Below the pieces are notes generated by a model. That model made no database searches, was not told the origin of the DNA, and saw only the letters and a list, made by a program, of their open reading frames with translations. A program made the translations under genes and the position numbers. From NCBI GenBank assembly GCA_944391315.1, contig CALXTD010000003.1, positions 286 to 64,285 on the forward strand: a DNA stretch of 64,000 bases. Reading direction: 5' to 3'. Below, in pieces: positions 1,099 to 61,446 of this stretch (its first letter is position 1; the number at the start of each line of letters is the position of its first letter). The stretch comes from an uncultured Alphaproteobacteria bacterium (GTDB lineage: Bacteria; Pseudomonadota; Alphaproteobacteria; RF32; CAG-239).

Positions 1099-3918
1099 AT
1101 GACAGAAGAAACAGAAAACCTGTCCGCTCCAAGCAATGCGGAAGGAATTATGCCGGTCGAAATTTCGGAAGAAATGCGCCGTTCATACTTGGATTATGCC
1201 ATGAGCGTTATTGTTGCGCGTGCCTTGCCGGATGTCCGAGACGGATTAAAGCCGGTTCACCGCCGCATTATCTACGGCATGTATGAAGCCGGTTATGATT
1301 ACAACAAACCTTATCGTAAATCAGCCCGTATCGTGGGTGATGTAATGGGTAAATATCACCCGCACGGCGACGCCGCGATTTATGATTCCATGGTTCGTAT
1401 GGCACAACCGTTTTCAATGAGATTACCTTTGGTCGACGGACAAGGAAACTTCGGCTCTATGGATGGTGACAGCGCTGCCGCCATGCGTTATACCGAGGCT
1501 CGCTTGGAAAAAGTCGCCCATGCCATGATTGAAGATATTGATAAAGACACGGTTGATTTTGTTCCAAACTATGATGAAACCTTGCAAGAACCGTCAGTCT
1601 TGCCGGCCCGTTATCCAAACCTTTTGGTAAACGGCGCCAATGGTATTGCTGTCGGTATGGCAACCAACATCCCTCCGCATAACTTGGGCGAGGTTTTGGA
1701 CGCTTGCTGCGCTTATATTGATAATCCTGACATCACGATTGATGACCTGATTAACATTGTCCCAGGGCCGGACTTCCCAACCGGAGGTTTAATTTTGGGG
1801 CAGGGCGGCGCCAAGTCAGCTTATTACACCGGCCGCGGCTCGGTCATGATGCGTGCAAAATGCACGATTGAGGAGCTGCATAAGGATAAAGAAGCAATTA
1901 TTGTCCACGAAATTCCTTATCAGGTCAATAAAGCCGCAATGATTGCCCGCATTGCCGAGTTGGTCAAAGACAAAAAAATCGAAGGCATTTCCGAAATCCG
2001 AGATGAATCAGACCGCCAAGGTGTCCGCGTTGTTATTGAAATAAAGCGTGATTTTCAGGCAAATGTTATTTTGAACCAGCTTTATAAATTCACACCGCTG
2101 CAAACCAGCTTTGGTATGAATATGCTGGCCATTAACGCCGGCCGCCCGATGATGATGAACTTAAAGGACATTATCTCGGCGTTCGTTAATTTCCGTGAGG
2201 AAGTTGTTCGTCGTCGGACGATATTTGAACTAAACAAAGCCCGCGACAGAGCTCATGTCTTGGTCGGTTTAGCAATTGCGGTTGAAAACCTTGATCCGGT
2301 AATTGAGTTGATTCGTTCTGCACCCACGCCGCAAGATGCCAAAGATGCCTTAATTTCAAGAGCTTGGCCTGCCGGAGAAGTTGAAGCCCTTGTTCAACTG
2401 ATTGATGAACCGGATAGAAAGGTTGAAAACGGCTATTATCATCTGTCAGAAGATCAAGCCAGAGCCATTTTGGACTTAAAACTTCAACGCTTGACCGGCT
2501 TGGAAAGAGACAAAATTCATGGCGAATTGAGAGACTTAGGCGAAGAAATTAAGAGATGCCTTGAAATTTTGGCATCACGCGAAAAACTCTTCAGCATCAT
2601 CCGTGATGAATTTGTCGCTATTAAGGACGAATATGCAACCCCGCGCCGCACCAAGATTGAAGATATCGAATATGATACCGATATTGAGGCCTTGATTCAG
2701 CGTGAAGAAATGGTCGTAACCGTAACCGAAGCCGGTTATATCAAGCGTGTTCCGCTTAATGCTTATAAGGCACAGCGCCGCGGCGGCAAAGGAAAATCCG
2801 GCATGACCACGAAGGAAGAAGATTTTGTAACCAGATTGTTTGTGGCCTCAACCCACACGCCGGTTCTGTTCTTCTCTTCAAAAGGCCAAGTTTATAAAAT
2901 GAAGGTTTATAAACTGCCGCTTGGCTCGCCAACGTCAAAAGGAAAGCCGTTTATTAACTTGTTGCCGTTGAGTGATGGCGAAAACATTACGACAATTATG
3001 AAGCTGCCTGAGAATGAGGCCGATTGCGAGAATATGTCAATTATGTTTGCCACGGCTCAAGGTAATGTCCGCCGCAATTCTCTGATGGACTTTGTAAATG
3101 TTCAGTCCAATGGTAAGATTGCGATGAAACTTGATGAAGGCGACAAACTGGTAAATGTTCGTATTTGTACGGAAGATGAAGATGTAATGCTTGCTACCAA
3201 GAGCGGTAAATGCATTCGCTTCCCTGTACCTGAGGTCAGAATGTTTGTCGGCCGCAATTCAACCGGTGTTCGCGGCATTAAGCTGAGCGAAGGCGATACG
3301 GTTATTTCAATGTCAATCTTAGACCATGTTCAAGCAACAATGGAAGAAAGAGATGAATATTCAAGAATTTCTTCTGCAATCAAGCGCTTGCAGTCTGAAC
3401 GTGGTGATGACAGTGAAATCAAGCTGGAAGAAACCGGCATTGAACTCAAAGACTTGACCGCCGAAAAATATGCGGAAATGAAGGAGAAAGAACAGTTTAT
3501 CTTAACCGTAACTACCACCGGTTATGGCAAGAGAACCTCTTCTTACGAATACCGCATTACCGGTCGCGGCGGACAAGGTATCGCCAATATGGAAATGTCT
3601 GCCCGCAACAAAGAAGTTGCAAGCTCTTTCCCGATTGAAGACAACCAACAGATTATGATGGTAACCGACGGCGGCAAACTGATAAGAATGGCCGTTGACG
3701 GCATCCGCATTGCCGGAAGAAAAACCCAAGGTGTCATCTTGTTCCGCATGGTTGATAACGAGAAGGTTGTCTCTGTCACCAAGCTTGAAGCCGATGAGGG
3801 CGATGATGAAGAGCTTGAGGACGAGACCGGAACCGAACCTTTGGGCGAAAGCGTTGCCGATATTGATGACGCTGCCGTTGAAGAAGTCAGTGAACCGGAG
3901 GTCGATTCCGCAGAATAA
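1099..3918 (+). CDS. gyrA: DNA gyrase subunit A
   Basis: 939-aa ORF with [22 protein letters not shown] and the catalytic-Tyr motif [12 protein letters not shown] GyrA-box ([10 protein letters not shown]) distinguishes it from ParC. Acidic C-terminal tail. Confidence 0.97.
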
Positions 3919-11232: not shown

Positions 11233-12331
11233 ATGAAAGCCGAAACACAAGAACTTATTGATGAAATAAAACACTCGACCGAATTATTACGGAGGTCGGT
11301 TTGACTACGAAAACTCAAAAATAAGATTAGATGAGCTCACAGCTTTATCCGAAGATACAAAGCTTTGGGAAGATGCCGCACGTGCCAAAAAGCTGATGAG
11401 CGAAAAAACAGCTTTGGAAGAAAAACTTCAAAATTACGAACATCTATGCCAAAGCCTTGACGAGATGAGCGAGATGGCAGTCTTGGCAGAAGAAGATGGC
11501 GATGAGGCTCTTCAAGCAGATGTAATGGCTCAATTAGAAAGCTTGAAACAAAACGCCAAACATCAAGAGCTTGATGCCCTTTTGAGCGGAGAAGTTGACG
11601 CCAATGATACATATTTAGAGGTTCATGCCGGTAGTGGCGGAACCGAGGCACAAGACTGGGCCGAAATGCTCTTAAGAATGTATACACGTTGGGCCGAACA
11701 ACATGGCTATAAAGTTGAATATATTGAAGAAACGGAAGGCGAGGTTGCCGGTTTAAAGTCTGCAACCATAAAGATAAGTGGACATAATGCTTACGGCTGG
11801 CTCAAGTCAGAAAGCGGCGTTCACCGTCTGGTGCGTATTTCGCCGTTTGACAGCGCCGGCAGAAGACACACAAGCTTTGCCTCAATCGGAGTTTATCCGG
11901 TTGTTGATGATGATATTGAGATAAATATTAACGAGGCAGATTGCCGTGTTGATACCTATCGAGCTTCCGGTGCCGGCGGACAACATATTAATAAAACCGA
12001 TTCGGCGGTAAGAATAACCCATATTCCGACCGGAATTGTTGTCCAATGCCAAACCCAGCGCTCACAGTTCCAAAACCGCGAAAGCGCATGGAAAATGCTG
12101 AAATCACGTTTGTATGAAATGGAATTAAAAAAGCGCGAGCAAAAGGAACAAGACATGAGAGACGCTCAAGGTGATATCGGTTGGGGATATCAAATCCGCT
12201 CTTATGTACTTCAGCCTTATAAAATGGTAAAAGACTTACGAACAGAGGTTGAAACATCTGATTGCAAAGCTGTGCTTGATGGCGATATTGATATGTTTTT
12301 ATCCGCAGCTTTGGCAGCAAAGGTAGGCTAG
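11233..12331 (+). CDS. prfB: Peptide chain release factor 2, needs a programmed +1 frameshift (join 11233..11301, 11303..12331)
   Basis: Frame 0 gives [23 protein letters not shown] and then TGA at 11302-11304. The +1 frame continues [31 protein letters not shown]... into the track ORF 11396..12331, which carries SPF (RISPFDS) and GGQ (GAGGQHINK). Confidence 0.93.
11291..11305 (+). promoter_or_regulatory. prfB +1 frameshift cassette (internal SD-like GGAGG, 3-nt spacer, GTT TGA C)
   Basis: GGAGG tcg GTT TGA C read directly from the sequence. Same layout as the E. coli AGGGGG uau CUU UGA C autoregulatory site. Confidence 0.8.
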
Positions 12332-18869: not shown

Positions 18870-18888
18870 AAGCAATAAGCTAAAACTA

Positions 18889-18916
18889 AAACAGCCCGAT
18901 TTGCGCGGGCTGTTTG
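18889..18916. terminator. Hairpin terminator shared by convergent clpX and the helicase gene
   Basis: ACAGCCCG-attt gcg-CGGGCTGT stem. The T-run is stronger on the minus-strand reading (CTGTTTTAGTTTT). Confidence 0.55.
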
Positions 18917-18934
18917 CGTTGAAAAATAGATAAC

Positions 18935-21900
18935 CTATTTTGAATTAAATTTTTCTTTTAGTGCGGCTAAACCGGATAAATCTGTAATAGAAGTACTTTT
19001 TTGTCCTTTAGCCGCTTTTTTTGCTTCTTTTAAGCGCTTTTTGTTTTCCTCGGGAGAAATAAGTTCTTCTTCTTGATAACTTTTCTCATGCTCTATTCCA
19101 GCCTTTTCTTCAAGAAACTCTCGCGTGGTGTAAATCCATTCGTTTGCATCTTCGTCATAATAAGACTGATTGTTAGATTCACGTTCAATATTAATGACCT
19201 TATCCTTTACATCTAAGAACAAGAAATAAGTTTCATCGTCAACAGTTCTACTATCAGAAATTTCATATCCAAGCTTATTCATAACTTTTTTTGCTATGTT
19301 TTCATAGCCCAAATTTCGACGGTCTCTGCCAACGGCATTGAAGTAATCATATCCGTGCGTTTCTTCGTTATCAAAGAAATTTAATAGTTCTTGCGCGGTA
19401 AATTCATCTATATGAGAAAGTTTTTCTTGTCTTTCAGCTTCTTTTTCTTGTTCAGCTTTTTCATTTTGAATGGTAAGAATGTCATTATCACGAATATTTA
19501 ATCCATGAACTTTCTTCAACCGTTTTTTTATTTCCTCAATTTTTTCAGAAGTTGAAATTTCTGATCTAATGAGTTCATTATTTTCTTCCAGAGTCTTATT
19601 ATATACATCTTCTTTACGAGTTTCGACCGGCTGAATAATCAAATCAGAAAATTCATCTTCCGTAATATCACCTTTGGCAAAAGGCTTAAATTCATCCATT
19701 TGGGAAAGGGTTTTTGCAATTTCTTTATATCCCGTATTTTCCAAGTTTTCATCAGGAATATTCTGCGCAACTTTCAATCCCATTTTTTTAATAGCTTCTT
19801 TTCTTTCTTTAATTTTGATTTCGGCTTTTTTGTTATGAATAAAAGAACGAAGTTTTTCTTTGTAAGCATCAGATAAATCAGCCTCATTCACAAGATTTTC
19901 AAGAGCGGTGGCGTTTGAAAGCATTTCATCAGAAATTTGAGATGTAACATTTGCATAACTCTTTTTATCTTCTTCAGGATCCCTGTTAGATTGAAAGACC
20001 TCCCCATTTTCTGCGGAAACAAAAAGTTTTTCGCCTTTTAATGTTGTAGATTTTCCTGTGGAGACATTAAGAATCTTAGAATTATCAAAGACAAATTTCT
20101 TATCTAAATTCATATAATAAAAATCCAATTGATTAACGGAAGAATTACGAAACTTAACATCTTTGGTTTGAGAGTAATCAAGCTCAACATAACTAGTATC
20201 TACGCCATCAAATAATAAATCCTTGGATTTAGAATGTTTTGCTTTTATTTCACTGGCTTTCATATGAGACAAAGAAATTCTATCAGCAGTAACACCTTCC
20301 AGAGAAATAATATTGTTAAAATTGTCATTTTCGGAAGACAAATTAATCTCTTTTAGAGTTGATGAATCAAACATTAGGGTATTAGACGCATCGCCGCAAA
20401 TATGCATATTGACTACCAAATCAGGATTCTGAATCTCAAAATGAGTAGCAACAACAGGATTTATTTTTAAATCAAGCTTATTGTCTTTAATAAGTCCGAG
20501 TTTTAAAATATCTTTTTCATTAATGTAAACGGAACTGTTATAATTAGACCTTTCCTCGTTAAGAATTTTAAATAAATCAAAGTTCTTTTTAGGGCGAGGG
20601 GCAGAAAGTACGTCACAAATAAGATCGTCATAATGTTCTTTTTTTAAAATATCCTTCCAAAAAGGAACAGGAATATTGTTTTTCTCTGTATAGTTTCTAA
20701 ACTCATCAACCCCTTTTTCCTCAAGCAGTTTCATTGCCTCTGCGACACGTGCTTTAAAGGCATCTGTAACAAATTCTTTTAATTTGTAATTTCCGATATA
20801 AGAAGAATCCAATATATGAAAATCTTTATCATCATCAACTTTTGAAATTACATCAGGATTTTTACGAATATACGTTTTAATATCATCAGCAGACAAAGCC
20901 GTAACATTTTCATTTACGGTGAAAGAACGGCCGCCGTTTTTAGGAGTAATTACCCGAGGTTCAGCCAGATAAAACATAGATGCTCTAACAGTAGAAGAGT
21001 TAGAAACATCATAACTGTTACGGTTAAAAATATTCATACCATCAATATTAAGTTTTTCAATATGACCCGCAATGAGACATTGACGTAATTTATCATAGTC
21101 AAATTCAAGAGAGTCGGTAGAAAAGCGGACTCCCAATCTGTGTCGCAAATCACGAATAAGTTCCTTTGTTTCAAAGAAACGTTTTTTATTCATGTTATAA
21201 GTAAAAAATATTTGATTAGTTCTTGCTTCTAACTCTTTTCTCTGGATCCCAGAACGTTTAAGTTTTTTCAGTTCTTTATCAGTTGCAACAAAAGCCTTTA
21301 ATCCATCAAATAAGTCAGATGAATCATCTAAACCGTGATTTTGTCTGAAATTTTGCCGCAAGTTTCCTTGTTCGGAAATCGCAGTCATCACAATAGCTTG
21401 AGGCAAACAGTATTCGCGACTCTGGGCATATTTTAAGGTAACGGCATTTTCCACTGTAACCGGCAAATCATTAGAAAACTTTCCAAGATTTGTTAATTTT
21501 CCGTCCTCATCAATAAGTTTTAGCCTTTTTAATTTATCTTTTGCCGCCAAAAGTTGATTGTGATCAATATAAGCATCAAAATTCAAATCCTCAGCTTTCA
21601 AATCAAAGCTGGCACAATCCATGACCAAAGAAGAAAGAGGAAGTCGTGAAATTTCAGGAGTTGTTTCTTTGTCGCGATTACTCCATTTGCTGTAGGACGC
21701 TAAAACAAAGATACCATCGGTAAAACGACAAACACGACCTTTCTGTTGTTGTAAACGCCATTGAGGCAAATCTTGTTCTTTAAGAGCAATTGCTCCGCTG
21801 GAAGTAACAAAAAGGTCTTTTCCTTTACCTGAAGTAACACCTGCATCAAGCCAAGGAATATTCATACCGCTTTCGATAACATTTGTTCCGATAAGAATTT

Positions 21901-22720
21901 TTTTAAAACCATTTTGAGGTGCTTTAAGTGCTTTATCGCGCTCTTTTTTATCCATTTCACCATAGATTGAAGCCACCTCAACATTTTTAATATCTTTCGA
22001 AAGCAGCAAAGTTTCAATAGCATCTTTGGTATCTTCAATATTAGCCACACCGGATTCAAAAACAGCAACACCTTTTCTGTTTTTATTAAGGATTAAATCG
22101 ACAGCATGTTCGGCAGAAGATTTACTATTATCTTCAATAATTTCACAGTCAAAAGTTCTACCTTCTGATTCAAAAGTTTTAGGATTAAACTGTTTCCAGT
22201 ATTCTTTTTGTTTTTCAAGATTAATTGTAGCGCTCATTTCAATCAGACGCATCGGATCACCTTGAGTCTTTCTATAATGAAGCAAGGCTTTAGCAATAGA
22301 CATATCCATAGATGCTTCGTGTACTTCATCAAGAACGATATTTTTTTCATAAAATATCATACCGGAACTGATAGCATAACCATAGGTAGCAAAAATAATT
22401 TTCGAGCGCTTGCTAAAAAGAGGTTCATCACCACCTTGAGTACCAACCGCATAACCAACTTCTTCACCAAGAGACGTGTCGGAAAGCTCAGCCACGGTTT
22501 CCGCAGCATTAATAGCTAAGAATTTTCTTGGAACAAGAACAACAACTCTTTCATTATCAGGAATTTTATCGGCTAATTTGGCTGGTATTGTTAAAGTTTT
22601 ACCGCTACCGGTAGGAGAAGAGATGATTGTTACGCTTTCATCAACGGCCTGCATAACATCGTCAGAAACTTCATTAACAGGAAGATCTTTTAATGTGTTA
22701 TTATATAATTCTTCAAACAT
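18935..22720 (-). CDS. DEAH/RHA-type (HrpA/HrpB-like) helicase with a long unrecognised C-terminal extension
   Basis: Maximal ORF is 18935..22747 (1270 aa). The second ATG at 22720 has GGGAGAG 5 nt upstream and is preferred. Motifs GSGKT, DEVHE, SAT, TNVIESGMNIP, QQQKGRVCR, followed by an HA2/OB-like region. About 650 further aa carry no catalytic motif I recognise. Confidence 0.8.
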   Translation of the reverse strand: MFEELYNNTLKDLPVNEVSDDVMQAVDESVTIISSPTGSGKTLTIPAKLADKIPDNERVVVLVPRKFLAINAAETVAELSDTSLGEEVGYAVGTQGGDEPLFSKRSKIIFATYGYAISSGMIFYEKNIVLDEVHEASMDMSIAKALLHYRKTQGDPMRLIEMSATINLEKQKEYWKQFNPKTFESEGRTFDCEIIEDNSKSSAEHAVDLILNKNRKGVAVFESGVANIEDTKDAIETLLLSKDIKNVEVASIYGEMDKKERDKALKAPQNGFKKILIGTNVIESGMNIPWLDAGVTSGKGKDLFVTSSGAIALKEQDLPQWRLQQQKGRVCRFTDGIFVLASYSKWSNRDKETTPEISRLPLSSLVMDCASFDLKAEDLNFDAYIDHNQLLAAKDKLKRLKLIDEDGKLTNLGKFSNDLPVTVENAVTLKYAQSREYCLPQAIVMTAISEQGNLRQNFRQNHGLDDSSDLFDGLKAFVATDKELKKLKRSGIQRKELEARTNQIFFTYNMNKKRFFETKELIRDLRHRLGVRFSTDSLEFDYDKLRQCLIAGHIEKLNIDGMNIFNRNSYDVSNSSTVRASMFYLAEPRVITPKNGGRSFTVNENVTALSADDIKTYIRKNPDVISKVDDDKDFHILDSSYIGNYKLKEFVTDAFKARVAEAMKLLEEKGVDEFRNYTEKNNIPVPFWKDILKKEHYDDLICDVLSAPRPKKNFDLFKILNEERSNYNSSVYINEKDILKLGLIKDNKLDLKINPVVATHFEIQNPDLVVNMHICGDASNTLMFDSSTLKEINLSSENDNFNNIISLEGVTADRISLSHMKASEIKAKHSKSKDLLFDGVDTSYVELDYSQTKDVKFRNSSVNQLDFYYMNLDKKFVFDNSKILNVSTGKSTTLKGEKLFVSAENGEVFQSNRDPEEDKKSYANVTSQISDEMLSNATALENLVNEADLSDAYKEKLRSFIHNKKAEIKIKERKEAIKKMGLKVAQNIPDENLENTGYKEIAKTLSQMDEFKPFAKGDITEDEFSDLIIQPVETRKEDVYNKTLEENNELIRSEISTSEKIEEIKKRLKKVHGLNIRDNDILTIQNEKAEQEKEAERQEKLSHIDEFTAQELLNFFDNEETHGYDYFNAVGRDRRNLGYENIAKKVMNKLGYEISDSRTVDDETYFLFLDVKDKVINIERESNNQSYYDEDANEWIYTTREFLEEKAGIEHEKSYQEEELISPEENKKRLKEAKKAAKGQKSTSITDLSGLAALKEKFNSK

Positions 22721-22821
22721 AACTTCTCTCCCAAAATAATCAAACATTGATTAATATATATCATATTTTAAAACTTTTGTCTATTAAATTTTTTTGAGAT
22801 GTATTAATAAATTGATATTAA

Positions 22822-22861
22822 ACAAAAAAAATCCGCAACGGTTTTATGTGCGGATTTTTTT
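22822..22861 (-). terminator. Rho-independent terminator of ppiD
   Basis: ATCCGCA / TGCGGAT stem with an 11-nt loop, followed on the minus strand by an 8-T run. Lies 18 nt downstream of the ppiD stop. Confidence 0.65.
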
Positions 22862-22878
22862 AGGGACAAAATTATAAG

Positions 22879-24744
22879 TTAGTCAGCCAAGCCGAGGAGC
22901 TTATACTTAACCCGAACATCATAGCCCTGAGCATAACTCTGGGTTAAGGTTTCGGCAGCTTCGGCAACCAGTTCATTACGAACTTTGTTGCGGATGTCAG
23001 CCTTTTCCTGTTGAGTAAGTTTGTGAGTATCTTTAACCACCTCAGAGGTAACGGCAATAATCTTAGCTTCGCCATTATCAAAAAGGTGAGGTGTTCCGGG
23101 CTCTTCTTGGAACAATTCCGCAATCTGAGAAGACGGCATCATTTCAAAGCTTTCTGACTTCTTGATTTGTTTTGAAACATAGAGCTTCAGGCCAAGACGA
23201 GCAGCAACATCAGATATTTTCTCACCATTTTCAAGATTAGAGGTAATGTCGTTAATCATCTCTTGAGCAAGAGCATCGCGCTCATTATTTTCCCAGATTT
23301 TAACGAGTTGAGGACGAATTTCCTCAAGCGGCAAAAGATGAGATTCAACAATGTTGTTAACGGTCAAAACTGCATAACCCGTGTCTGTTTCAATAACTTG
23401 GCTGATTTCACCAACATTATAAGAAAATGCCGTGTCAACCAAATCTGTAGAAAGTTTTGAAGAGGAACCGTTATAAGAACCGTCTTCTGCCAATCCTTTT
23501 ACGGAAGTAATTTTAACTCCGAGATTTTTAGCAATCTGATCAAAACTCTGACCGGCACCGATTTTATCTTCGATAGAATTTGCAAATTCATAAGCTGTAT
23601 CATAAGCCTTTTCTTTGCGGATAGCTTCAGCTGCTTTTTTGTCAGCTTCTTTGCGATTCATTTTTTCGGCAGGAGTAACGGCAGTTACTTTGAAAATATG
23701 CCATCCGAATTCTGATTTAATCGGCCCGATAACTTTATTAAGCGGGGCAGAGAACACATCATCAGCTACATCAGCCAGAAGCATATCTTTAGAAACCGCT
23801 CCAAGCTTGGTATCTTGAGAAGTCTGCTGAGCCAAAGATTTTGCAACGGCAAAGAAATCTGTGCCGGAAGCTAACTCATTGCTGGCTTTCTGAGCCGTTT
23901 CTTCAGAATCAAATACCATCTGCAAAACATCACGCTTTTCCGATGTTTCAAACAAAGAGATATTTTGCTGATAATAGGAGTTTATTTCTTCTTGAGACGG
24001 ATTATAAGCCTCGGCAATATCTTCTGAAGAAAGCGTAAAGTAAGAAACATCGCGTTTTTCTGGAGCCATAAAGTTCTCGGCAAAATCGCTGTAATACTGT
24101 TCGACTTCGTCATCAGAAATATTGCGAGTAATGGTGAGCTTCTGCGGAACGATTTTAACATAAGAGAAAACGCGTTTTTGATTTTCGATTTTTCCGAGCC
24201 AATCAGTCAGAAAGTCCGGAACCTCAATTCTTCTGACCGGATTCTGAACCAACATTTGGCGCAAAACATCAGAGCGCAAAGCTTGAATGTATTCTTGCTC
24301 AGTCCAACCAGTTGCAGACAACATCAAATTAAAGCGGTTGCGATCAAACTGGCCTTGAGCATTCATAAATTCGTTTTGTGAATAAATAATCTTGCGAATA
24401 AGCTCATCGCCGATAACAATATTATTTTTCTGAGCAGTTGTTTGCAAAATAGCATCAGCAACTTCGCGTTGAACTATTCCAAGAAGCAAAGTGCTTTTGA
24501 TTGAGTCATTAATTTCGAGGTTGTCACCAAACATTTTGCGTGTATTGGCAAGCTCTTTTTCATACATAAAAGAAACTTCACCTTGCGAAATTTCAATATC
24601 ATCAACTTTAATAACGGTCCGATTCTGACCGGCATTGTAAATATAACCCGAAATTCCAAATAACGACATAAAGCTAAGCGCAGTAAGGATAAAAATACTT
24701 TTAGCAACCCAACTGTCTTGCATTTTTCTAATTTTGCTCATCAT
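22879..24744 (-). CDS. ppiD: Periplasmic chaperone / peptidyl-prolyl isomerase PpiD
   Basis: 621 aa. N-terminal TM anchor, SurA_N-like region, single parvulin core (SEFGWHIFKV). Confidence 0.85.
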   Translation of the reverse strand: MMSKIRKMQDSWVAKSIFILTALSFMSLFGISGYIYNAGQNRTVIKVDDIEISQGEVSFMYEKELANTRKMFGDNLEINDSIKSTLLLGIVQREVADAILQTTAQKNNIVIGDELIRKIIYSQNEFMNAQGQFDRNRFNLMLSATGWTEQEYIQALRSDVLRQMLVQNPVRRIEVPDFLTDWLGKIENQKRVFSYVKIVPQKLTITRNISDDEVEQYYSDFAENFMAPEKRDVSYFTLSSEDIAEAYNPSQEEINSYYQQNISLFETSEKRDVLQMVFDSEETAQKASNELASGTDFFAVAKSLAQQTSQDTKLGAVSKDMLLADVADDVFSAPLNKVIGPIKSEFGWHIFKVTAVTPAEKMNRKEADKKAAEAIRKEKAYDTAYEFANSIEDKIGAGQSFDQIAKNLGVKITSVKGLAEDGSYNGSSSKLSTDLVDTAFSYNVGEISQVIETDTGYAVLTVNNIVESHLLPLEEIRPQLVKIWENNERDALAQEMINDITSNLENGEKISDVAARLGLKLYVSKQIKKSESFEMMPSSQIAELFQEEPGTPHLFDNGEAKIIAVTSEVVKDTHKLTQQEKADIRNKVRNELVAEAAETLTQSYAQGYDVRVKYKLLGLAD

Positions 24745-31017: not shown

Positions 31018-33255
31018 ATGACAGAACAACCTATTGAAACAGAAGAAAAAATAAAAAGTGTTCACTTAGCTGAAGAGTTGAGTAGCCGCTACTTGTCTTA
31101 TGCAATGTCGACAATAGTTTCGCGTTCGCTTCCTGATGTTCGTGATGGATTAAAGCCGGTTCACCGCCGTTTGCTGTTTGCCATGAGGCAGTTGCACCTC
31201 GATCCTAAATCTGGATTCAAAAAATGCGCCAGAGTAGTCGGTGATGTCATCGGTAAATATCACCCGCATGGTGACACGGCCGTTTATGGCGCAATGGTCA
31301 GATTAGCACAAGATTTTTCAGTGCGTTATCCGCTGGTTGATGGACAAGGAAACTTTGGTAATATTGATGGTGATGGTGCCGCCGCCATGCGTTATACCGA
31401 AGCCAGATTGACCGAATTTGCCATGGCCTTAATGGAAGGCCTGAACGAAAACGCCGTTGATTTCAGAGAAACTTATGACGGAGAAGAAGAAGAGCCAGTT
31501 GTTATGCCCTCAATGGTGCCAAATTTGCTCTGCAACGGTTCAACCGGTATTGCCGTTGGTATGGCAACCAATATTCCGCCGCATAATCTGAGTGAAGTCT
31601 GTGATGCATTGCTGTATTTAATCGAAAATCCAGATTGTGAAATAGAACCGCTTGTCAGACGCATCAAAGGTCCTGATTTTCCGACCGGAGGCATAATTGT
31701 CGACAAGTTTGAAACGATTTTAAATAATTACAAACAGGGAAGAGGATTTTTCCGTATCAGAGCTAAGTGGGAAACAGAAGATTTAGGCCACGGGCAATAT
31801 CAAATTGTTGTTAAAGAAATCCCTTATCAGGTTATAAAATCAAAATTAATTGAAAAAATAGCCGAACTTCTGTTTGATAAAAAAGTTCCGTTATTGTCCG
31901 ATGTCCGAGATGAATCAGCGCAAGACATCAGAATAGTCCTTGAGCCAAAGAACAGAACGGTTGATGCAAATCTGCTGATGGAGCATTTGTTCCGCCAGAC
32001 AGATTTGGAAACACGTTTTAGTATGAATATGAATGTGTTAGACCACGAAGGTGTACCGCATGTCATGGACATCAAACAGGTTTTGCGCGAGTTTTTGGAT
32101 CATAGACATATTGTTTTACAAAGACGCGTTAAATACCGCTTGGACAAGATAAATGCACGATTGGAAATTCTGTCGGGATATTTGATTGCCTATCTGAATT
32201 TGGATGAAATCATCAGAATAATCCGCGAAGAAGATGATGCCAAGGGCGTTATGATGGCTCGTTTCGGTCTGACCGAAAATCAGGCAGAAGCCATACTAAA
32301 TATGAAATTGCGTTCGCTCCGTAAGCTGGAAGAAGAAGAAATTCGTGAAGAATACAATGACTTAAGCGCCGAAAAGGAACAACTTGAAGAACTTATCGGC
32401 AGCGAGGCAAAACGCTGGGAGGCAATCGCCGGAGAAATTAAGCAGATTAAAGAAAAGTTTGGCAAAAAGACGGCTTTAGGACGCCGCCGCACAGAGTTTG
32501 CCGAAGTTTCTGAGGATGTGGAAGTTCCGCTTGAAGCAATTATTGAAAAAGAACCGATTACGATAATTCTATCACAAAAAGGTTGGATTAGATGCCTAAA
32601 AGGCTATGTCGACTTGAATGAAGACTTTAAATTCAAAGACGATGATGCTTTGCAGGTTGCAATTCACGCCCAAACGACTGATAAGATTATAATTTTTGAT
32701 ACAGCCGGAAAATTTTATACCATTGCCGCCAATGAAATCCCAAGCGGCCGCGGCTTTGGTCAGCCTTTGCGCTTAATGATAGATTTGGGCATATCGGATT
32801 CTGTCTGCGCAATGTTTGTTTTTGAACCCGGAGCCAGTTATGTGATTGCATCTAATATCGGTCGCGGCTTTGTCGTTGATGAAAATCATATATTGGCCCA
32901 GACCAAAAACGGCCGTAAGATAATGAATGTCGCAGAGGGTGAGGTTGCACGCTTCTGCCGTAAGATAACCGGCGATATGATTGCCATTATCGGCGAAAAC
33001 CGCAAGTTACTGGTCTTTAAAATTGAAGAAATTCCGACCATGGCCAGAGGACGTGGCGTTACTTTGCAAAAATACAAAGACGGCGGCTTGTCGGATTTGC
33101 AAATTTTCAAAGAGGCCGAAGGCTTTACTTATACGCGTGCCGGCGGCACCAAGACCGAAACCGACTTGCTGACCTGGCTTGGACATCGTGCTCAGATTGG
33201 AAAATTAGCACCTTTTGGCTTTCCTAAGAGCAACAAGTTTTTGAAAGAAGACTAA
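31018..33255 (+). CDS. parC: DNA topoisomerase IV subunit A
   Basis: 745 aa. [33 protein letters not shown]. No GyrA box and a shorter C-terminal domain than the gyrA in this window. Confidence 0.95.
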   Translation: MTEQPIETEEKIKSVHLAEELSSRYLSYAMSTIVSRSLPDVRDGLKPVHRRLLFAMRQLHLDPKSGFKKCARVVGDVIGKYHPHGDTAVYGAMVRLAQDFSVRYPLVDGQGNFGNIDGDGAAAMRYTEARLTEFAMALMEGLNENAVDFRETYDGEEEEPVVMPSMVPNLLCNGSTGIAVGMATNIPPHNLSEVCDALLYLIENPDCEIEPLVRRIKGPDFPTGGIIVDKFETILNNYKQGRGFFRIRAKWETEDLGHGQYQIVVKEIPYQVIKSKLIEKIAELLFDKKVPLLSDVRDESAQDIRIVLEPKNRTVDANLLMEHLFRQTDLETRFSMNMNVLDHEGVPHVMDIKQVLREFLDHRHIVLQRRVKYRLDKINARLEILSGYLIAYLNLDEIIRIIREEDDAKGVMMARFGLTENQAEAILNMKLRSLRKLEEEEIREEYNDLSAEKEQLEELIGSEAKRWEAIAGEIKQIKEKFGKKTALGRRRTEFAEVSEDVEVPLEAIIEKEPITIILSQKGWIRCLKGYVDLNEDFKFKDDDALQVAIHAQTTDKIIIFDTAGKFYTIAANEIPSGRGFGQPLRLMIDLGISDSVCAMFVFEPGASYVIASNIGRGFVVDENHILAQTKNGRKIMNVAEGEVARFCRKITGDMIAIIGENRKLLVFKIEEIPTMARGRGVTLQKYKDGGLSDLQIFKEAEGFTYTRAGGTKTETDLLTWLGHRAQIGKLAPFGFPKSNKFLKED

Positions 33256-33435: not shown

Positions 33436-33545
33436 GGCTGTGAATAAGTTTGTTATAAACGCTTAAAGCACTTTAAATTCAAAAAAAATAAGATTAAAAT
33501 GCTCCCAGATTTTAAGTTAATTTGGGGAACAGGGGATTTATATTT

Positions 33546-36500
33546 ATGTCGACTAATGAATCAAATAAAAACACGACAATAACGACTACTCCGGAATTAG
33601 ATAACAAACAAACCTGGCTAAGCAATAATTTGTACCAACTGATGATTTGGACAAGTGTAGCATGGTTTGGCATTGTGCTGTTTTACATCAGCCAGTTTTT
33701 CGGTTGGTCTAACCTGTTTCTGATGATGCCGGATGAATTTGGCGGATTTTTAGCCGGTGTAACACTGCCTTTGGCGATATTGTGGGTTGTTGTGGCCTAT
33801 ATTGACCGTGGAACAAGCTTCAAGACCGAGGCCAGATTGCTGAGAAGTTATATGAACCAGCTTGTTTATCCGGAAGAGGGCGCAGCCCAAACAGCTAAGG
33901 CAATGGCAGACGGCATTCGCTCACAGGTTGTTGAATTACAAAATGCAACCAAATTGGCAACCGAGCAAAGCCAAAAGATAAAAGAGGAATTAAATGCACG
34001 GGTAGAAGATTTTGCCGGCATTATTTCAACTTTGGATAAATATTCATCACAAACGGTCGGGCAGTTGTCTGATACCTTAAAGCAGCTGACCACATCATTT
34101 GAGATGATGAATGAAAAAGCCTTGTCCCATAGTGGAAACTTAAAAAATATCGGAGCTGAGGTTTCTGGCATATTTGCGCAGATGAACAAAGAAGCAGATA
34201 TGTTTGTCAAAAATGTTTTACCGAATATCAATGAGGTAAAATATTCGGCAGAATTGCTCGAAAAAGCTACCAAAGAGAGCAATGCTCGCATGATAAAGGC
34301 AAATGAGACAATCTTAGAGTTAGCCGATAAATCTCATAACAGCATTGAAAAAGCATCAGAAATTTTGGAGTCTCAGGCTCAAAAAATTGCTTTGATATCA
34401 GAAAAGGCTGTCAGCGAATGCGACAAGATGAGACAAAATATTGATAATAGTGTCAATTCTTTGGCCGATGTTATGCAAAGCCAAAACAATACGATGAAAG
34501 GCTATGTTGAAACCTTAAACCAAAACGCAGATACTTTGGGGCAAAAATTTGCCGAGCAAGGAGACGTTGTTAAGGCTGAGATTGATAAAATTATTTCAAG
34601 AGCGGGTATGGCAGAAGAAAGCATCGCCATCCAAGTCCGCGAATTAAACAGTGTTTCAGAAGAAATCAATAATATTATGCAAGCTGTTCAGTCTGATATC
34701 AAGGAACACAGTGAACTCTTAGAAAAAACAACGGATATTGCTCAGAAAAATACTGATATTGTTATAGAAAGCCTCAAAAAAGAGGCTTCTGCCGTTGCTG
34801 AAACAGCAGATCAGTCAATCTTGAAGTTAAATTCCGTCAATGAGACTTTAAAGGGTAATCAAGCGCAAATAAAAGAAGCAGAACAAGAGACCGCAAACAG
34901 AATACAGGTTACAGCACAAGATTTACAGCAAAAATCCGCATTGTTGCAAAACACTGCCGATACAGCAGTAAAAGCCTTAGAACAAATTTCACAGACAATG
35001 AAGAAAAATGCCGAAAGCATTGGCGAAACTTCATCATTAGTTGTAACTCAGAGCAAAATAAGCGAAAACTCTTTGACCCAGCAACAGCGTATTATCAGCA
35101 CATCAGTCAACCATATTGAAGAGATGAAAGGCGAACTCAAGAGAGAAATTGAAGAGCTGAGCCGCATTTCAAATATGATGGGTGAAGATGCTAAAGATAC
35201 AATAAAGAGCTTAAAAGAACAAATAGAAGCTACTTACGCCGTATCAGAAGACATTATCGGAAAAACAAATGAACTCAAACAAGAATTCAAATCTCAAGCC
35301 GATGATATGTCAAGTCTGGTCGATATAACTTGCAATAAAATGAAGGTTGTTAACGATAATCTTGAAAGCCATTATCAAAAGATTGACAATCTGAATGACA
35401 GCATTGAAAGCAAGACAACCAACTTAACACATATGTTGTCATTGCAAACAGAGATGATAAACAAATCATCAGAAGCCTCTGAAAAAACACATAAAGACTT
35501 GCTTAACTCCTTTAGCAAGCAAAGCAACATGCTAAGCAATATGGCTGAAACAACAATTGGTTATGTGACAGACGTCATAAAAGCATTTGACGAAAAAGCT
35601 GAAATGATTAACCTATTGTTTAAACAGCAAGAAGGCGAGTTTTTCGATATTTGTGATAAAATTTCAGAGAATACAAATAATATCGGCAGCGCCATGAAAA
35701 AACAAATTTCTATCATTGAACAAAGCGCCGATAGAGTTTTCTCAAGATTAGCAATATTGGAAGAAGATGCCAGCAAGCGTTCAAACTTCATTAATAGCAG
35801 CGTAGAGCAGTCTATAGATAAATTGCTCAAGATAAACGAAGCTGTAGAAGCACAAAATGATGCTGTTGTCAGAATAATTAATGGCATGCAAGATAAAATG
35901 CAGCAAGTTACGGATGATTTTAACCAAAACATATCATCTTTTGCTGAGATTTTTGACCAGGTTAAAGAAGGCGCAGACAATGTTTCAGCCGGCATTATGG
36001 ATAATTGCCGCCGCCTTGAGGCTGCGAATGAGAGCATGGCTTCCGGCAGTAAAGACATTGCCATGATTATGGAAGGCCATATAAAGACCTTGGATGAAGC
36101 TTTAATTAAAACCCAATCTCAGGCAGAAAGTATAAAAGAAAGCCTTACCCAACAGTCTGAAAGCATAAAAGATGTCGTAAATGTTGTTTCAACCCAAACC
36201 AGACTGGGCGAGGCCTCTTTGGCACAGCAGTATAAGTACTTGTCTGAAGCGTCAACAAACGTCGCACAACAGCTTAATGAAATCAGTGAGCAGATAAAAA
36301 ATAGCGGTGAAAACATCACAGAAATTACCACCAAAGCTGGATATAATATAGATTCTCTTGGCGATAAGATGCTAAAAATCGGAGAAGATATCTCCAAAGC
36401 AACCAAAGCCTCTGTTAAAAATATTGAACAAGTTGGCTTGTCATTATCTCAAAGCTCTGAGGATTTGACAAAGACGGTAGAAGTTTCAAATCAAAAAGTC

Positions 36501-37505
36501 AGCGCCGTTATGAAGGATTATGAAAAATATTTGGCCGGCTTTAATACCGTAACCGCAGAAGCCAGCACCGGTGTTATTGAGATAAATAATCTGATATCAG
36601 AACAAAATGATAAGATGTTGAATTTGTCAGAAGGCACCAAAGAGCTGGTAACCTACTTTAATACTGTGTTAAATGATGCCTCAATGGTCTTGTCTGACAG
36701 AGCCAATCAGGCTTACGACAAGGTAAAAGGCCTTGGCGATAGTTTGAAAAAGCTGGGCATACAGCTTGATGAAATGACTAAACAAAGCGCCGGCAGCTTA
36801 GAAAATGCCGGAAATAAGCTGAGAGCATCTATTGGCGAAATTTCTTCAAATGCAGAAAGAGTTGCCAATGACATCCGCTCTTCCGGAGAAATCTTCTTAA
36901 AACAGTCAAATGTCTTGGTTGCGGCAAGTGATGATTCAATTAGTAAAGTAACTGAGGTCGTTGGCTCTTTAAGCAATGCGTCAAAAGAGTTCACTGCCCA
37001 AGGAGAAGATATTCTCCAAAAGTCAAACGGCTTTAATGCATTGTTCAAAAAACAACTTCAAATTTTAACGGATACATCATCAAAAGCTGAGCTAAAATTG
37101 AAGGATTTAGAAAAGCTTTATGAAGGCATGAGGGTAGACAGCTTCTTAAGAAACGCCTCTTATGTTCTGGAAAAACTTGAATCGGCAGCTGTTGACATTA
37201 ACCGGATATTCAACCCCGGCGTAGAAGAAGAACTCTGGAAAAAGTATTATAACGGAGATACTTCAGTGTTCGTCAGACATCTTGCCAGAACAATGAGCCG
37301 GAGCCAAATTGTCGGCATTAAGACTGAATTTGAAAAGAATGCAGAATTCAGAGACGTTGTCACCCGCTATCTGACAGATTTTGAAAGTCTGGTAGGAAAA
37401 GCCAAAGACAGCGAAAAATCAGGACTTCTGTTGTCAGTTATTTCAGGGGCTGATGTCGGTAAACTCTATTATGTATTAGCAAAAGCATTGGATAGAATTA
37501 ACTAA
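33546..37505 (+). CDS. Giant membrane-anchored coiled-coil protein (unknown function)
   Basis: ATG 33546 with AGGGGA upstream (1319 aa). Two N-terminal hydrophobic helices. More than 1000 aa are Q/S/E/K/N/A-rich with almost no Pro. The C-terminal ~130 aa is aromatic-containing (EELWKKYYNGDTSVFVRHLARTMS). Confidence 0.8.
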   Translation: MSTNESNKNTTITTTPELDNKQTWLSNNLYQLMIWTSVAWFGIVLFYISQFFGWSNLFLMMPDEFGGFLAGVTLPLAILWVVVAYIDRGTSFKTEARLLRSYMNQLVYPEEGAAQTAKAMADGIRSQVVELQNATKLATEQSQKIKEELNARVEDFAGIISTLDKYSSQTVGQLSDTLKQLTTSFEMMNEKALSHSGNLKNIGAEVSGIFAQMNKEADMFVKNVLPNINEVKYSAELLEKATKESNARMIKANETILELADKSHNSIEKASEILESQAQKIALISEKAVSECDKMRQNIDNSVNSLADVMQSQNNTMKGYVETLNQNADTLGQKFAEQGDVVKAEIDKIISRAGMAEESIAIQVRELNSVSEEINNIMQAVQSDIKEHSELLEKTTDIAQKNTDIVIESLKKEASAVAETADQSILKLNSVNETLKGNQAQIKEAEQETANRIQVTAQDLQQKSALLQNTADTAVKALEQISQTMKKNAESIGETSSLVVTQSKISENSLTQQQRIISTSVNHIEEMKGELKREIEELSRISNMMGEDAKDTIKSLKEQIEATYAVSEDIIGKTNELKQEFKSQADDMSSLVDITCNKMKVVNDNLESHYQKIDNLNDSIESKTTNLTHMLSLQTEMINKSSEASEKTHKDLLNSFSKQSNMLSNMAETTIGYVTDVIKAFDEKAEMINLLFKQQEGEFFDICDKISENTNNIGSAMKKQISIIEQSADRVFSRLAILEEDASKRSNFINSSVEQSIDKLLKINEAVEAQNDAVVRIINGMQDKMQQVTDDFNQNISSFAEIFDQVKEGADNVSAGIMDNCRRLEAANESMASGSKDIAMIMEGHIKTLDEALIKTQSQAESIKESLTQQSESIKDVVNVVSTQTRLGEASLAQQYKYLSEASTNVAQQLNEISEQIKNSGENITEITTKAGYNIDSLGDKMLKIGEDISKATKASVKNIEQVGLSLSQSSEDLTKTVEVSNQKVSAVMKDYEKYLAGFNTVTAEASTGVIEINNLISEQNDKMLNLSEGTKELVTYFNTVLNDASMVLSDRANQAYDKVKGLGDSLKKLGIQLDEMTKQSAGSLENAGNKLRASIGEISSNAERVANDIRSSGEIFLKQSNVLVAASDDSISKVTEVVGSLSNASKEFTAQGEDILQKSNGFNALFKKQLQILTDTSSKAELKLKDLEKLYEGMRVDSFLRNASYVLEKLESAAVDINRIFNPGVEEELWKKYYNGDTSVFVRHLARTMSRSQIVGIKTEFEKNAEFRDVVTRYLTDFESLVGKAKDSEKSGLLLSVISGADVGKLYYVLAKALDRIN

Positions 37506-54252: not shown

Positions 54253-54328
54253 GGGTGCGTAGCTCAGTTGGTAGAGCAACTGACTCTTAATCAGTGGGTC
54301 TGGGGTTCGAACCCCCACGCGCCTACCA
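54253..54328 (+). tRNA. tRNA-Lys (anticodon CTT)
   Basis: 76 nt folded by hand. Acceptor GGGTGCG/CGCGCCT, D-arm AGCTCAGTTGGTAGAGC, anticodon stem ACTGA/TCAGT with loop CT-CTT-AA, T-arm TGGGG-TTCGAAC-CCCCA, encoded CCA. Confidence 0.95.
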
Positions 54329-58304: not shown

Positions 58305-59144
58305 ATGGATATAATTACATCAAGCATAATCATGTTAGGCGGCATAGCTCTGGCCTCAGGTGTTGTCTTATACTTTGTGTCCAAAAAGTTTTATGTAAAA
58401 GAAGATGCCAAAATATCTGAGGTTGAAAAGCTTCTTCCGGGCGTAAATTGCGGCGCTTGCGGAAAAGCCGGCTGTCATGATTTTGCTAAGGCTTGCAGCA
58501 AAGCTAATGCCGAAGGGTTTAAGCAGTTATATTGCACGGTTGGCGGCAATAAAGTTATGCAAAAGGTTGCAGAGGCCTTAGGCTATCGTCAGGAAGAAAA
58601 AGAAGAAACCGTCGCAGTCCTTCGTTGCCAAGGTACATGCCAAAATGCGCCGTCAAAGTTTGAATACACCGGCTTAAAGAGTTGCCGCTTGGTAGCACAA
58701 ATCTCCACCTCACAAAGCGAATGCCCCTATGGCTGTGTCCGCTTAGGTGACTGCGTTAGTGTGTGTAAATTCGGTGCTTTAAAAATTGACAAAGAACTGG
58801 GCATTCCTGTAGTCGATGAAAACAAATGTGTTTCTTGCGGTGCCTGCGTTGAAATTTGCCCTAAAAAATTATTTGAAATCAGGCCCAAAGGCAAAGACGG
58901 CAAAAGAGTTTATGTTGCTTGCCGTAATCAGCAAAAAGGAGCCATCGCCCGCAAAAATTGCTCAGCCGCATGTATCGGATGCATGAAGTGCACAAAGATT
59001 AATCCGGAAATCAAAGTCGAAAACAACTTGTCATACATTCCAACCTCGGTTGATGCTGAAACTTATGGACAAGAACTGGCCGACAATTGCCCGACCGGTG
59101 CAATTGTTTATACCGGCAGAAAGGAGAAAAAACATGGAGCTTAA
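58305..59144 (+). CDS. rnfB: Rnf complex subunit B (Fe-S)
   Basis: 279 aa. N-terminal TM, CGACGKAGC cluster, several ferredoxin-type CxxCxxCxxxCP motifs. Confidence 0.9.
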   Translation: MDIITSSIIMLGGIALASGVVLYFVSKKFYVKEDAKISEVEKLLPGVNCGACGKAGCHDFAKACSKANAEGFKQLYCTVGGNKVMQKVAEALGYRQEEKEETVAVLRCQGTCQNAPSKFEYTGLKSCRLVAQISTSQSECPYGCVRLGDCVSVCKFGALKIDKELGIPVVDENKCVSCGACVEICPKKLFEIRPKGKDGKRVYVACRNQQKGAIARKNCSAACIGCMKCTKINPEIKVENNLSYIPTSVDAETYGQELADNCPTGAIVYTGRKEKKHGA

Positions 59145-60459: not shown

Positions 60460-60467
60460 GGTGAAAA

Positions 60468-61445
60468 ATGCTAAAATTATCAACAGCACCCCATCTAAAC
60501 ACCCCAACAACCACCAGAGGCATCATGCTTGACGTGATTATCGCCTTAATGCCGGCTTTGATTGTTGGCCTTTTAGTCTTTGGAATGGGCGCTCTCCAAG
60601 TTGTGATAACCTCAGTGGCCGGTTGCGTGTTGTTTGAATACATAATCTGTCGTTACTTTTTGAAATCAAACCCGACTACCGGAGACTTATCGGCCATTGT
60701 AACCGGATTATTGCTGGCTTTTAATCTTCCGTCCGGCTTTCCGATAAGCTTAACCCTCATCGGTTGCTTTGTTGCCATAGTTATTGCCAAGATGGCATTT
60801 GGCGGAATTGGAAAGAACATTTTCAATCCGGCATTAGTCGGCCGTGTTTTCTTGTTCATCTCTTTTCCGGTGCAAATGACAACCTGGCCCAAGCCCCAAG
60901 CCTTTAACTTTATGAATACGGATATGGAAACCGGTGCCACAACCCTCGGAATTCTAAAACACTTAAAAACAGATGAAACCGCTCAAATGCCTGAACTTCC
61001 AAGCTATTTGAATATGTTTATCGGAAACATCGGCGGCTGTATCGGAGAAGTTTCCGCCTTAGCCATCTTACTTGGTTTTGTTTATATGTTATATCGCCGC
61101 ATTATCAGCTGGCATATACCGGTTTATTATGTCGCAACTTTTATGTTACTGAGTTCAATACACTGGTTACTGACCGGAGAAATCCGTCATGAGCCGTTAA
61201 TTCACTTGCTTTCCGGCGGTCTTATGCTTGGCGCCGTATTTATGGCAACGGATTATACCACCAGTCCAATGTCCAAAAATGGCAGAATAGCATACGCCAT
61301 CGGCTGCGGAATTTTAACTTATGTGATTCGTTTCTATGGCATCTATCCGGAAGGCGTATCCTTTGCTATATTAATAATGAATGCTTTTGTTCCGTTAATA
61401 GACAGCACCTTTATTCCGCGCGTCTTTGGTACAAGGAGAAAATAA
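60468..61445 (+). CDS. rnfD: Rnf complex subunit D
   Basis: 325 aa polytopic NqrB/RnfD-like protein (SAPHL..., GGIGKNIFNPALVGR, TGAT). Confidence 0.92.
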   Translation: MLKLSTAPHLNTPTTTRGIMLDVIIALMPALIVGLLVFGMGALQVVITSVAGCVLFEYIICRYFLKSNPTTGDLSAIVTGLLLAFNLPSGFPISLTLIGCFVAIVIAKMAFGGIGKNIFNPALVGRVFLFISFPVQMTTWPKPQAFNFMNTDMETGATTLGILKHLKTDETAQMPELPSYLNMFIGNIGGCIGEVSALAILLGFVYMLYRRIISWHIPVYYVATFMLLSSIHWLLTGEIRHEPLIHLLSGGLMLGAVFMATDYTTSPMSKNGRIAYAIGCGILTYVIRFYGIYPEGVSFAILIMNAFVPLIDSTFIPRVFGTRRK

Positions 61446-61446
61446 C

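Follow-up and report, generated by a model that had tools for sequence, protein, structure and literature searches.

The stretch analysed here, referred to throughout as the window, comprises 64,000 nucleotides (nt) of contig CALXTD010000003.1 (assembly GCA_944391315.1, positions 286 to 64,285 of the forward strand) from an uncultured Alphaproteobacteria bacterium. Between clpX and ppiD the window has a gene for a large helicase of the DEAH/RHA family, an open reading frame (ORF) of 1,270 codons plus stop on the minus strand (Table 1), and it is this gene that is described below. Its neighbours are yhdP-like, clpP, clpX, ppiD, tpiA, secG and pyrG genes, and no defence or mobility genes were found around it in the window. 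The true start is probably the ATG at 22720 (residue M10), giving a protein of 1,261 amino acids (aa), since this codon is preceded by a GGGAGAG Shine-Dalgarno sequence (22726-22732), the alignments of all homologues begin at query residue 10 and the gene of a public contig of the same species is called at 1,261 aa. The upstream candidate, ATG 22747, lies only about 13 nt past a promoter-like -10 box. Terminator-like hairpins lie on both sides of the gene and fold much better than shuffled sequences (z -4.2 to -4.8), so that the gene appears to be monocistronic and bracketed by terminators, in agreement with a preliminary description that had been made from the letters alone.

That description had also regarded the gene as AT-rich. 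This is the case, with a G+C content of 33.7%, but the contrast is smaller than was claimed, clpX and ppiD having 40.9% and 39.8% rather than about 45%. The deviation is an effect of the third codon position, where the helicase gene has the lowest G+C content (GC3) of 51 ORFs, 0.242, the mean of the window being 0.371 (standard deviation 0.046). GC3 is even along the gene, with values of 0.243 for the core, 0.243 for the beta-helix and 0.237 for the tail.

The N-terminal half of the protein is a DEAH/RHA motor, in which Pfam recognised DEAD and Helicase_C as the sole families. The motor motifs are GSGKT (I), PRK (Ia), TYGY (Ib), DEVH (II), SAT (III), TNVIESG (V) and QQQKGRVCR (VI). Every motif quoted beforehand is present in the translation (GSGKT, VGYAVG, DEVHE, SAT, TNVIESGMNIP, QQQKGRVCR, PRK, TYG and WIYTTREFLEE), as are the longer segments TPEISRLPLSSLVMDC, HGYDYFNAVGRDRRNLGYENIAKKVMNKLGYEI and KKRLKEAKKAAKGQK. 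The motif residues for binding and hydrolysis of nucleoside triphosphates (NTPs) are invariant across 76 members of the clade to which the protein belongs. Of the two positions that had been singled out as deviating, PRK is indeed a departure, being specific to the sub-clade where the clade consensus is PRR, while TYG is a clade-wide feature and not peculiar to the window protein (T112 is invariant and YGY occurs in at least 90% of sequences).

An AlphaFold2 (AF2) model of residues 10-860, built with a 76-sequence alignment, has a mean predicted local distance difference test score (pLDDT) of 94.4 and a predicted template modelling score of 0.86, with pLDDT above 90 across the winged-helix, ratchet and OB-like domains. 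In Foldseek the model superposes on the whole chains of Prp22, Prp43 and HrpA (E about 1e-30, 650-720 columns), with template modelling (TM) scores of 0.83-0.84 normalised to Prp22, and phmmer against PDB sequences returned Prp43, Prp2, Prp22, HrpA and HrpB at 1e-22 to 1e-28. Because the model superposes on entire DEAH/RHA helicases, the winged-helix, ratchet and OB-like domains are predicted to be present. The HA2-like and OB-like segments proposed earlier are thus confirmed by predicted structure, though missed by Pfam, whose HA2 and OB_NTP_bind profiles gave no detection in the protein. The model points to a complete RecA1-RecA2-winged helix-ratchet-OB engine with an architecture as in Prp22, Prp43 and HrpA.

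The motor half has about 109 relatives which score 274-2784 bits, the next matches being HrpA- and HrpB-like proteins at 125 bits or less. These relatives were delimited as a clade by a score against the query core of at least about 270 bits, a core of about 700 aa whose end lies behind the OB domain and connector helices, and TYGY as motif Ib, all of which are found in the window protein. Clade members are mostly 700-780 aa, the conserved core corresponding to query residues 10 to about 690, and the longer members, of up to 2,097 aa, bear unrelated extensions. The named members all come from metagenome-assembled genomes (MAGs) labelled Rickettsiales, Alphaproteobacteria or Proteobacteria, and the closest genome match is an uncultured alphaproteobacterium. 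The impression of an orphan-like helicase could therefore not be upheld, as its motor half has more than 100 clade relatives in alphaproteobacterial MAGs. Judged on sequence, these form an unnamed alphaproteobacterial DEAH/RHA clade outside the HrpA, HrpB and Z5898-like groups, which are the only bacterial DEAH/RHA groups recognised in reviews (PMC8325345).

HrpB provides the best-scoring curated bacterial profile and has the common motor motifs, but the window protein falls far under the cut-off of the HrpB equivalog TIGR01970 (164 bits against 546, with profile positions 1-450 aligned to aa 22-465), and the NF008662 profile gave 159.5 bits against a cut-off of 1053. The HrpB C-terminal domain (PF08482, HrpB_C) is absent from the window protein in Pfam, and there is a gap of at least 150 bits between the clade and HrpB-like matches. 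With HrpA the protein has in common the engine (Foldseek E about 4e-30), considerable length and a large C-terminal region. The similarity is confined to the engine, however, with about 20% identity. The window protein is without the DUF3418 region (no Pfam match at E ≤ 1) and without the N-terminal APHB/S1-like domain, no HrpA model of NCBIfam was among its profile matches, its C-terminus is predicted to fold otherwise, as a beta-helix followed by a helical cassette, and its gene is strain-variable and not core.

The top PDB matches in both sequence and structure are the eukaryotic helicases Prp43/DHX15, Prp22/DHX8, Prp2 and DHX37, the superposition on Prp22 extending over the whole 626-aa chain (TM 0.83). 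Identity to these is again about 20%, and the window protein differs in having neither the G-patch partner logic nor the N-terminal extensions and in being of bacterial lineage; HrpA and HrpB follow so closely that no special relationship can be read from this ranking. The Z5898-like helicases are similar in that they are accessory, island-type, strain-variable genes. They were compared through six large ORFs of OI-172 of Escherichia coli O157:H7 EDL933, which take in all of its DEAD/DEAH helicases, Z5898 not being singled out, and membership of this group was rejected: the clade hidden Markov model had no match at E ≤ 10, the best BLASTP E-value was 0.07, and none of the six proteins matched either the window protein or the clade profile. 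A plasmid or phage origin was also rejected, as tblastn of plasmid and phage records gave just distant HrpA and HrpB and no close helicase relatives.

The C-terminal region had been described as unlike that of HrpA or HrpB, and it does match nothing known in Pfam, in a HMMER scan or in Foldseek, there being no significant Pfam family in the last 570 or so residues. An AF2 model of aa 690-1270 (19 sequences) has a pLDDT of 85, which suggests that the region is folded and not disordered. The order in the model is connector helices, a beta-solenoid, an all-helical region and a low-confidence Lys-rich tail with a short end helix. Foldseek with aa 690-1270 against PDB and BFVD gave nothing below E 0.1, and the weak, non-significant echoes were all beta-helix proteins (SV2 luminal domain, CAP C-terminal domain and AlbG, E 8.8). 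The predicted solenoid, with central coils of about 20 residues, is common only to the longer helicase relatives. It may resemble the pentapeptide-repeat proteins Qnr, MfpA and AlbG and the SV2 luminal domain in its predicted right-handed form and its coils of about 20 residues (aa ~820-900), but differs from these in that the repeats are irregular, the match is sub-threshold and the domain forms part of a helicase and does not stand alone. The 5-residue periodicity noted beforehand is weak, with a Pentapeptide_4 score of 23 bits against a Pfam cut-off of 38 and a hydrophobic period-5 power of p about 0.08 against shuffles; AF2 nonetheless predicts a beta-solenoid here.

Beyond the solenoid there is a conserved signature, FF(E/D)N..HG..YF..VG.DRRN.GY, followed by ...K.AKKA.K... 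and, at the extreme end, L.GLAALKDKF. The HMMER scan with aa 690-1270 found 13 relatives among 1.84 billion representative proteins, and a profile of the C-terminal module found two short proteins only in a set of 5.8 billion. Long helicases of the same sub-clade are P0003 and P0007, from the HMMER scan, and P0002, P0005 and P0136, from other searches. Three proteins of about 1,200 aa with no Pfam domain (P0123, P0124, P0127) have only the last ~170-340 residues in common with the query; two proteins with a KH RNA-binding domain (P0129, P0130) likewise match it only there, and P0128 is the C-terminal module alone, at 157 aa. Because these residues recur on KH-domain, ~1,200-aa and stand-alone proteins without the beta-helix, the C-terminus appears to be modular, consisting of a helicase-specific beta-helix and then a cassette which is put on several proteins in these organisms. 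The two recognisable types of cassette-bearing protein are both RNA-binding. As a conjecture, the Lys-rich stretch and the amphipathic helix at the end could serve as a peptide for docking or as a sequence that targets the protein to the membrane. It may be added that P0129 and P0130 also contain repeated degenerate Hjc-like segments, and that the gene for P0123 (L040 8001-11549) is a solitary one amid sugar-metabolism and envelope genes.

Table 1. Features of the helicase locus and of the ORF found beside other clade helicases. Positions are those of the window unless a contig is named.
Feature	Residues (aa)	Position	Strand	Evidence or remark
Helicase gene, longest ORF		18935..22747	-	ORF and translation; probable start ATG 22720
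RecA1 and RecA2 motor domains	~10-360	21668..22720	-	Pfam DEAD, Helicase_C; 76-sequence alignment; AF2
Winged-helix, ratchet/HA2-like helical bundle and OB-like domains (predicted)	~361-650	20798..21667	-	AF2, Foldseek; boundaries approximate
Connector helices	~651-740	20528..20797	-	Conserved to about aa 690-700 in the ~700-aa clade core
Predicted beta-solenoid, pentapeptide-like beta-helix	~741-920	19988..20527	-	AF2; weak Pentapeptide_4; weak Foldseek
Helical cassette	~921-1225	19073..19987	-	Carries module FF(E/D)N..HG..YF..VG.DRRN.GY
Acidic linker, Lys-rich stretch (KKRLKEAKKAAKGQK) and conserved terminal helix (L.GLAALK.KF)	~1226-1270	18938..19072	-	
G+C-rich hairpin between clpX and the helicase gene (convergent)		18889..18915		Terminator-like on both strands
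ppiD terminator-like hairpin upstream of the helicase		22825..22861	-	13-bp A/U-flanked stem
Promoter-like site ahead of the helicase, TTAATA-16-TATGAT		22760..22787	-	Consensus match only
Strain-variable cassette, clpX stop to ppiD stop		18870..22878		Comparison of conspecific contigs
~90-aa ORF		L004 8116-8385; L007 8124-8396; L015 7154-7420		
~90-aa ORF		L005 10811-11128, 12128-12382; L013 5627-6004; L010 6144-6332		

The helicase is a strain-variable accessory gene, carried by about half of the strains sampled. Contigs were taken to be of the same species where their ClpP is identical to that of the window, together with one (L054) where PpiD is identical; yhdP, clpP, clpX, ppiD, tpiA and pyrG of L044-L053 are 95.6-99.7% identical to the window DNA, nearly all at 97% or more. 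Five contigs (L044, L045, L048, L049 and L052) have an empty site, clpX being directly followed by ppiD with a spacer of about 114 bp which holds just the two hairpins, and three (the window, L051 and L054) have the helicase between these genes. The hairpin next to clpX is found in empty and occupied alleles alike, and a sequence variant of that next to ppiD is confined to helicase-carrying strains. Two other contigs also carry the gene: L043 is short with the helicase gene alone, and L046 has it beside clpX but is chimeric inside it. The latter was considered as an 895-aa variant filling the slot and rejected, the contig switching at window position ~21730. At L046 14760-15383, helicase sequence of 99.8% identity turns abruptly into DNA of 50% G+C, the foreign part being the C-terminal end of an unrelated protein which we tentatively read as an outer-membrane beta-barrel.

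There is a low-diversity tract from about 18870 to 22960 with sharp borders, which reaches the last ~80-100 bp of ppiD. Two carriers that were compared differ by 9 single-nucleotide polymorphisms over the 3.8 kb of the cassette, with 5-13 in every 500 bp of flank, which puts the diversity of the cassette about 8-fold below that of the flanks, and the flanks of carriers are no nearer to the window than those of non-carriers. Over the last ~100 bp of ppiD there are 6-14 differences between carriers and empty alleles, but only one between carriers. No integrase, insertion sequence, target duplication or repeats were found at the cassette junctions. The simplest reading is that the cassette entered or re-entered the species recently and that it moves or is deleted by homologous recombination via its flanks. 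The locus is thus not ordinary core genome, as had been supposed from the gene's features, the slot being empty or occupied within one species, with lower diversity and anomalous GC3. The gene is under purifying selection: the window copy and that of L043 have 16 synonymous and 8 non-synonymous differences (ratio of non-synonymous to synonymous polymorphism, pN/pS, about 0.13), and at least four independent contigs preserve the 3.8-kb frame of 34% G+C without interruption.

In a sister species (L001) the genes from pyrG by way of ppiD, the helicase and clpX to the PBP1A gene are arranged as in the window. The helicase of this species has 79% aa identity to that of the window, the flanking orthologues having 55-95%, and is of native composition (GC3 0.384). 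As this orthologue is syntenic, the slot has held this gene since before the species split, and simple recent horizontal gene transfer was rejected as the whole story. The horizontal acquisition proposed in the preliminary description therefore stands only in part; a one-off import does not agree with a sister orthologue in the same slot, while a flexible and probably exchanged gene does. The same description had set against its own proposal a C-terminus of known type together with orthologues of native composition at this locus in all relatives. Such an orthologue is what the sister species has, yet the C-terminus matches no known domain.

The alleles of the sister species show ongoing decay. 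The commonest is of 824 aa (L001 10001-12490) and has a clean C-terminal deletion inside the beta-helix (about aa 830) which abuts the terminator. One cluster at 90% (P0004, P0131, P0136, P0138) includes the 824-aa form, a full-length form of 1,259 aa (P0136), a frameshifted one of 585 aa and N-terminally truncated alleles, and P0121 is an internally deleted form of 371 aa, apparently derived from the sister-species gene. The helicase gene is dispensable, having been repeatedly lost or broken, and is probably exchanged among related lineages. Full-length relatives with 58-61% identity are found in other chromosomal contexts, and their GC3 is below that of most neighbours (0.33 against 0.24-0.52, mostly about 0.4, in one case, and 0.26 against 0.31-0.46 in another).

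Around other members of the clade, a conserved ORF of about 90 aa was seen directly downstream of helicases of 703-1,617 aa at six loci (Table 1), in some cases abutting or overlapping them. Its product, with the motif ...IRFIRA...KPCWFYLKL...YGxILESGWG..PP.DV..F...Y.F.TP and no Pfam family, may be a partner of the clade. This ORF is absent from the window, and the aromatic module of the window protein was rejected as a fused form of it (hhalign probability 0.05, BLASTP non-significant). Apart from this ORF, no partner recurring in at least five loci was found among the 38 loci searched. At L005 1-11128 (and in L006), a clade member of 1,615 aa is next to a DncV-like nucleotidyltransferase and a patatin, a fragment of an SMC/AAA ATPase and a leucine-rich repeat protein; this site, resembling a cyclic-oligonucleotide-based anti-phage signalling system (CBASS), is the only defence-like neighbourhood among about 30 loci.

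The best explanation, which we hold with moderate confidence, is that the gene product is an accessory, strain-variable, NTP-driven RNA translocase or helicase of the DEAH/RHA family, and among the roles suggested beforehand that of an RNA-remodelling factor fits best. HrpA is the best functional analogy. The C-terminal region of HrpA targets collided ribosomes, which HrpA splits (PMC11419001). HrpB and DHX37 are likewise brought to their substrates by their extensions, structured RNA in the case of HrpB (PMC8325345, PMC7237152). By analogy, the engine of the window protein may thread single-stranded RNA in the 3′ to 5′ direction through a tunnel between the RecA domains and the winged-helix/ratchet/OB module, and so extract it from duplexes or ribonucleoprotein complexes. 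The C-terminus, which is specific to the lineage, would add no chemistry of its own and would serve to dock the motor onto a target or site, candidates being the cell's own ribosomes or messenger ribonucleoproteins, or foreign RNA. Both spread and loss of the cassette probably occur by homologous recombination in the conserved clpX/ppiD flanks, and its decay in the sister species suggests that it is dispensable and probably costly. Several points weigh against this explanation. RNA rather than DNA is suggested as substrate by family membership only, motif Ib is atypical with TYGY in place of TDG, and HrpB, the best-scoring bacterial profile, is by itself without helicase activity (PMC8325345). 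A strictly housekeeping role in RNA metabolism fits poorly with a gene present in only about half of the strains, and the model does not account for a persistently low GC3 in three full-length genes when that of the sister orthologue is native.

Much of what makes the gene accessory would also be expected of a single-gene anti-phage or anti-plasmid system, the main alternative, in which the helicase detects foreign nucleic acid or strips it and the C-terminus acts as sensor or effector, with a beta-helix that could mimic nucleic acid. The presence and absence within the species, the low diversity of the cassette, the deviant GC3, the repeated inactivation in the sister species, as for a costly gene, and the hypervariable C-terminal extensions across the clade (total lengths 700-2,097 aa) are all consistent with this, and one distant clade member adjoins the CBASS-like CD-NTase/patatin pair mentioned above. 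We nevertheless consider defence unlikely. The profiles of PADLOC-DB v2 returned no family beyond a weak similarity to the Cas3 helicase core (E 2e-4 to 2e-3), neither Pfam nor Foldseek recognised an effector domain such as a nuclease, TIR or protease, no relatives were found on plasmid or phage records, the window is plain core genome with no defence island, integrase or insertion sequence, most clade members are in housekeeping contexts and the cassette is common to KH-domain RNA-binding proteins. The undescribed defence system envisaged in the preliminary description is thus barely sustained. A secreted or translocated effector, for which the C-terminal cassette and its positively charged tail would form a bipartite export signal, is improbable. 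Such a signal would account for the presence of the cassette on several large proteins that are otherwise unrelated. A BID domain with a basic tail is characteristic of type IV secretion substrates of alphaproteobacteria, and here a module of ~170-340 aa with a Lys-rich tail is present on helicases, KH-domain proteins, ~1,200-aa proteins and a stand-alone protein of 157 aa, with the extreme C-terminus conserved. Secretion-system genes are lacking both in the window and next to P0123, however, Foldseek retrieved no BID or other secretion-signal fold, and the two recognisable cargo types, being RNA-binding, would equally suit a shared intracellular docking site.

That the gene at present has no function in the species, being carried along as a neutral or decaying passenger, is very improbable. 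While half of the strains are without it, the sister species has deletion, frameshift and internal-deletion alleles and the low GC3 could reflect relaxed codon selection, this is countered by the intact 3.8-kb frame and low pN/pS described above, by the conservation of all catalytic residues and by a C-terminus that is predicted with confidence to be folded. The pentapeptide proteins Qnr, MfpA and AlbG are gyrase-binding DNA mimics, and a helicase acting on DNA could be tied to topoisomerase or replication biology through a beta-helix of this type. The weak Pentapeptide_4 match, the beta-solenoid model and the Foldseek match to AlbG at E 8.8 all point in this direction, as does the fact that DNA structures are acted on by certain DEAH/RHA enzymes, HrpA for instance binding DNA and i-motifs (PMC11014265). 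This is the least probable of the alternatives, given that the pentapeptide signal is under threshold, the fold matches are non-significant and the most common allele of the sister species can dispense with the beta-helix; gyrA and parC are at least 15 kb off in the window, and their presence there is probably coincidental.

Mechanisms of bacterial DEAH/RHA enzymes are just beginning to come to light, the splitting of collided ribosomes by HrpA being an example, and the locus adds a further clade to the three named groups, one limited to uncultured Alphaproteobacteria, and in one sub-lineage of it a C-terminus of about 570 aa that is folded with confidence in the models and is without relatives in structure databases. 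That the cassette is used again on KH-domain proteins suggests a docking module of RNA-binding proteins not described so far. A bolder and rather doubtful extension would be a new single-gene conflict or fitness module with a DEAH/RHA motor, whose lineage-specific docking (or export) cassette of about 340 aa gathers helicase, KH-domain and other large proteins of unknown function on one target; if this were true, an abundant clade of uncultured alphaproteobacteria would have a private machinery for RNA surveillance or of effectors, traded between strains by homologous recombination. Carriers and non-carriers occur within one species and therefore provide a ready-made comparison for finding the function of the helicase.

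The remainder of the window is plain core chromosome (including 1099-3918, 31018-33255 and 58305-63216), with genes such as gyrA, gltX, the PBP1A gene, prfB, the yhdP-like gene, clpPX, ppiD, tpiA, pyrG, parC, dus, trkA, hflX, apbE and those of the Rnf complex. Rfam identified one tRNA (54253-54325) and no other family in the window. The prfB gene for RF2 (11234-12331, plus strand) is in two parts, with the usual programmed +1 frameshift between them at ~11291-11306. The slippery context is GGAGG TCG GTT TGA C, with GTT and not the canonical CTT before the in-frame TGA, and the site is identical in the sister MAG L001. There is also an ORF of 1,327 aa with a TTG start (33522-37505, plus strand), for which only weak, sub-threshold Pfam matches of coiled-coil type (ATG17-like, DUF4156) were obtained.

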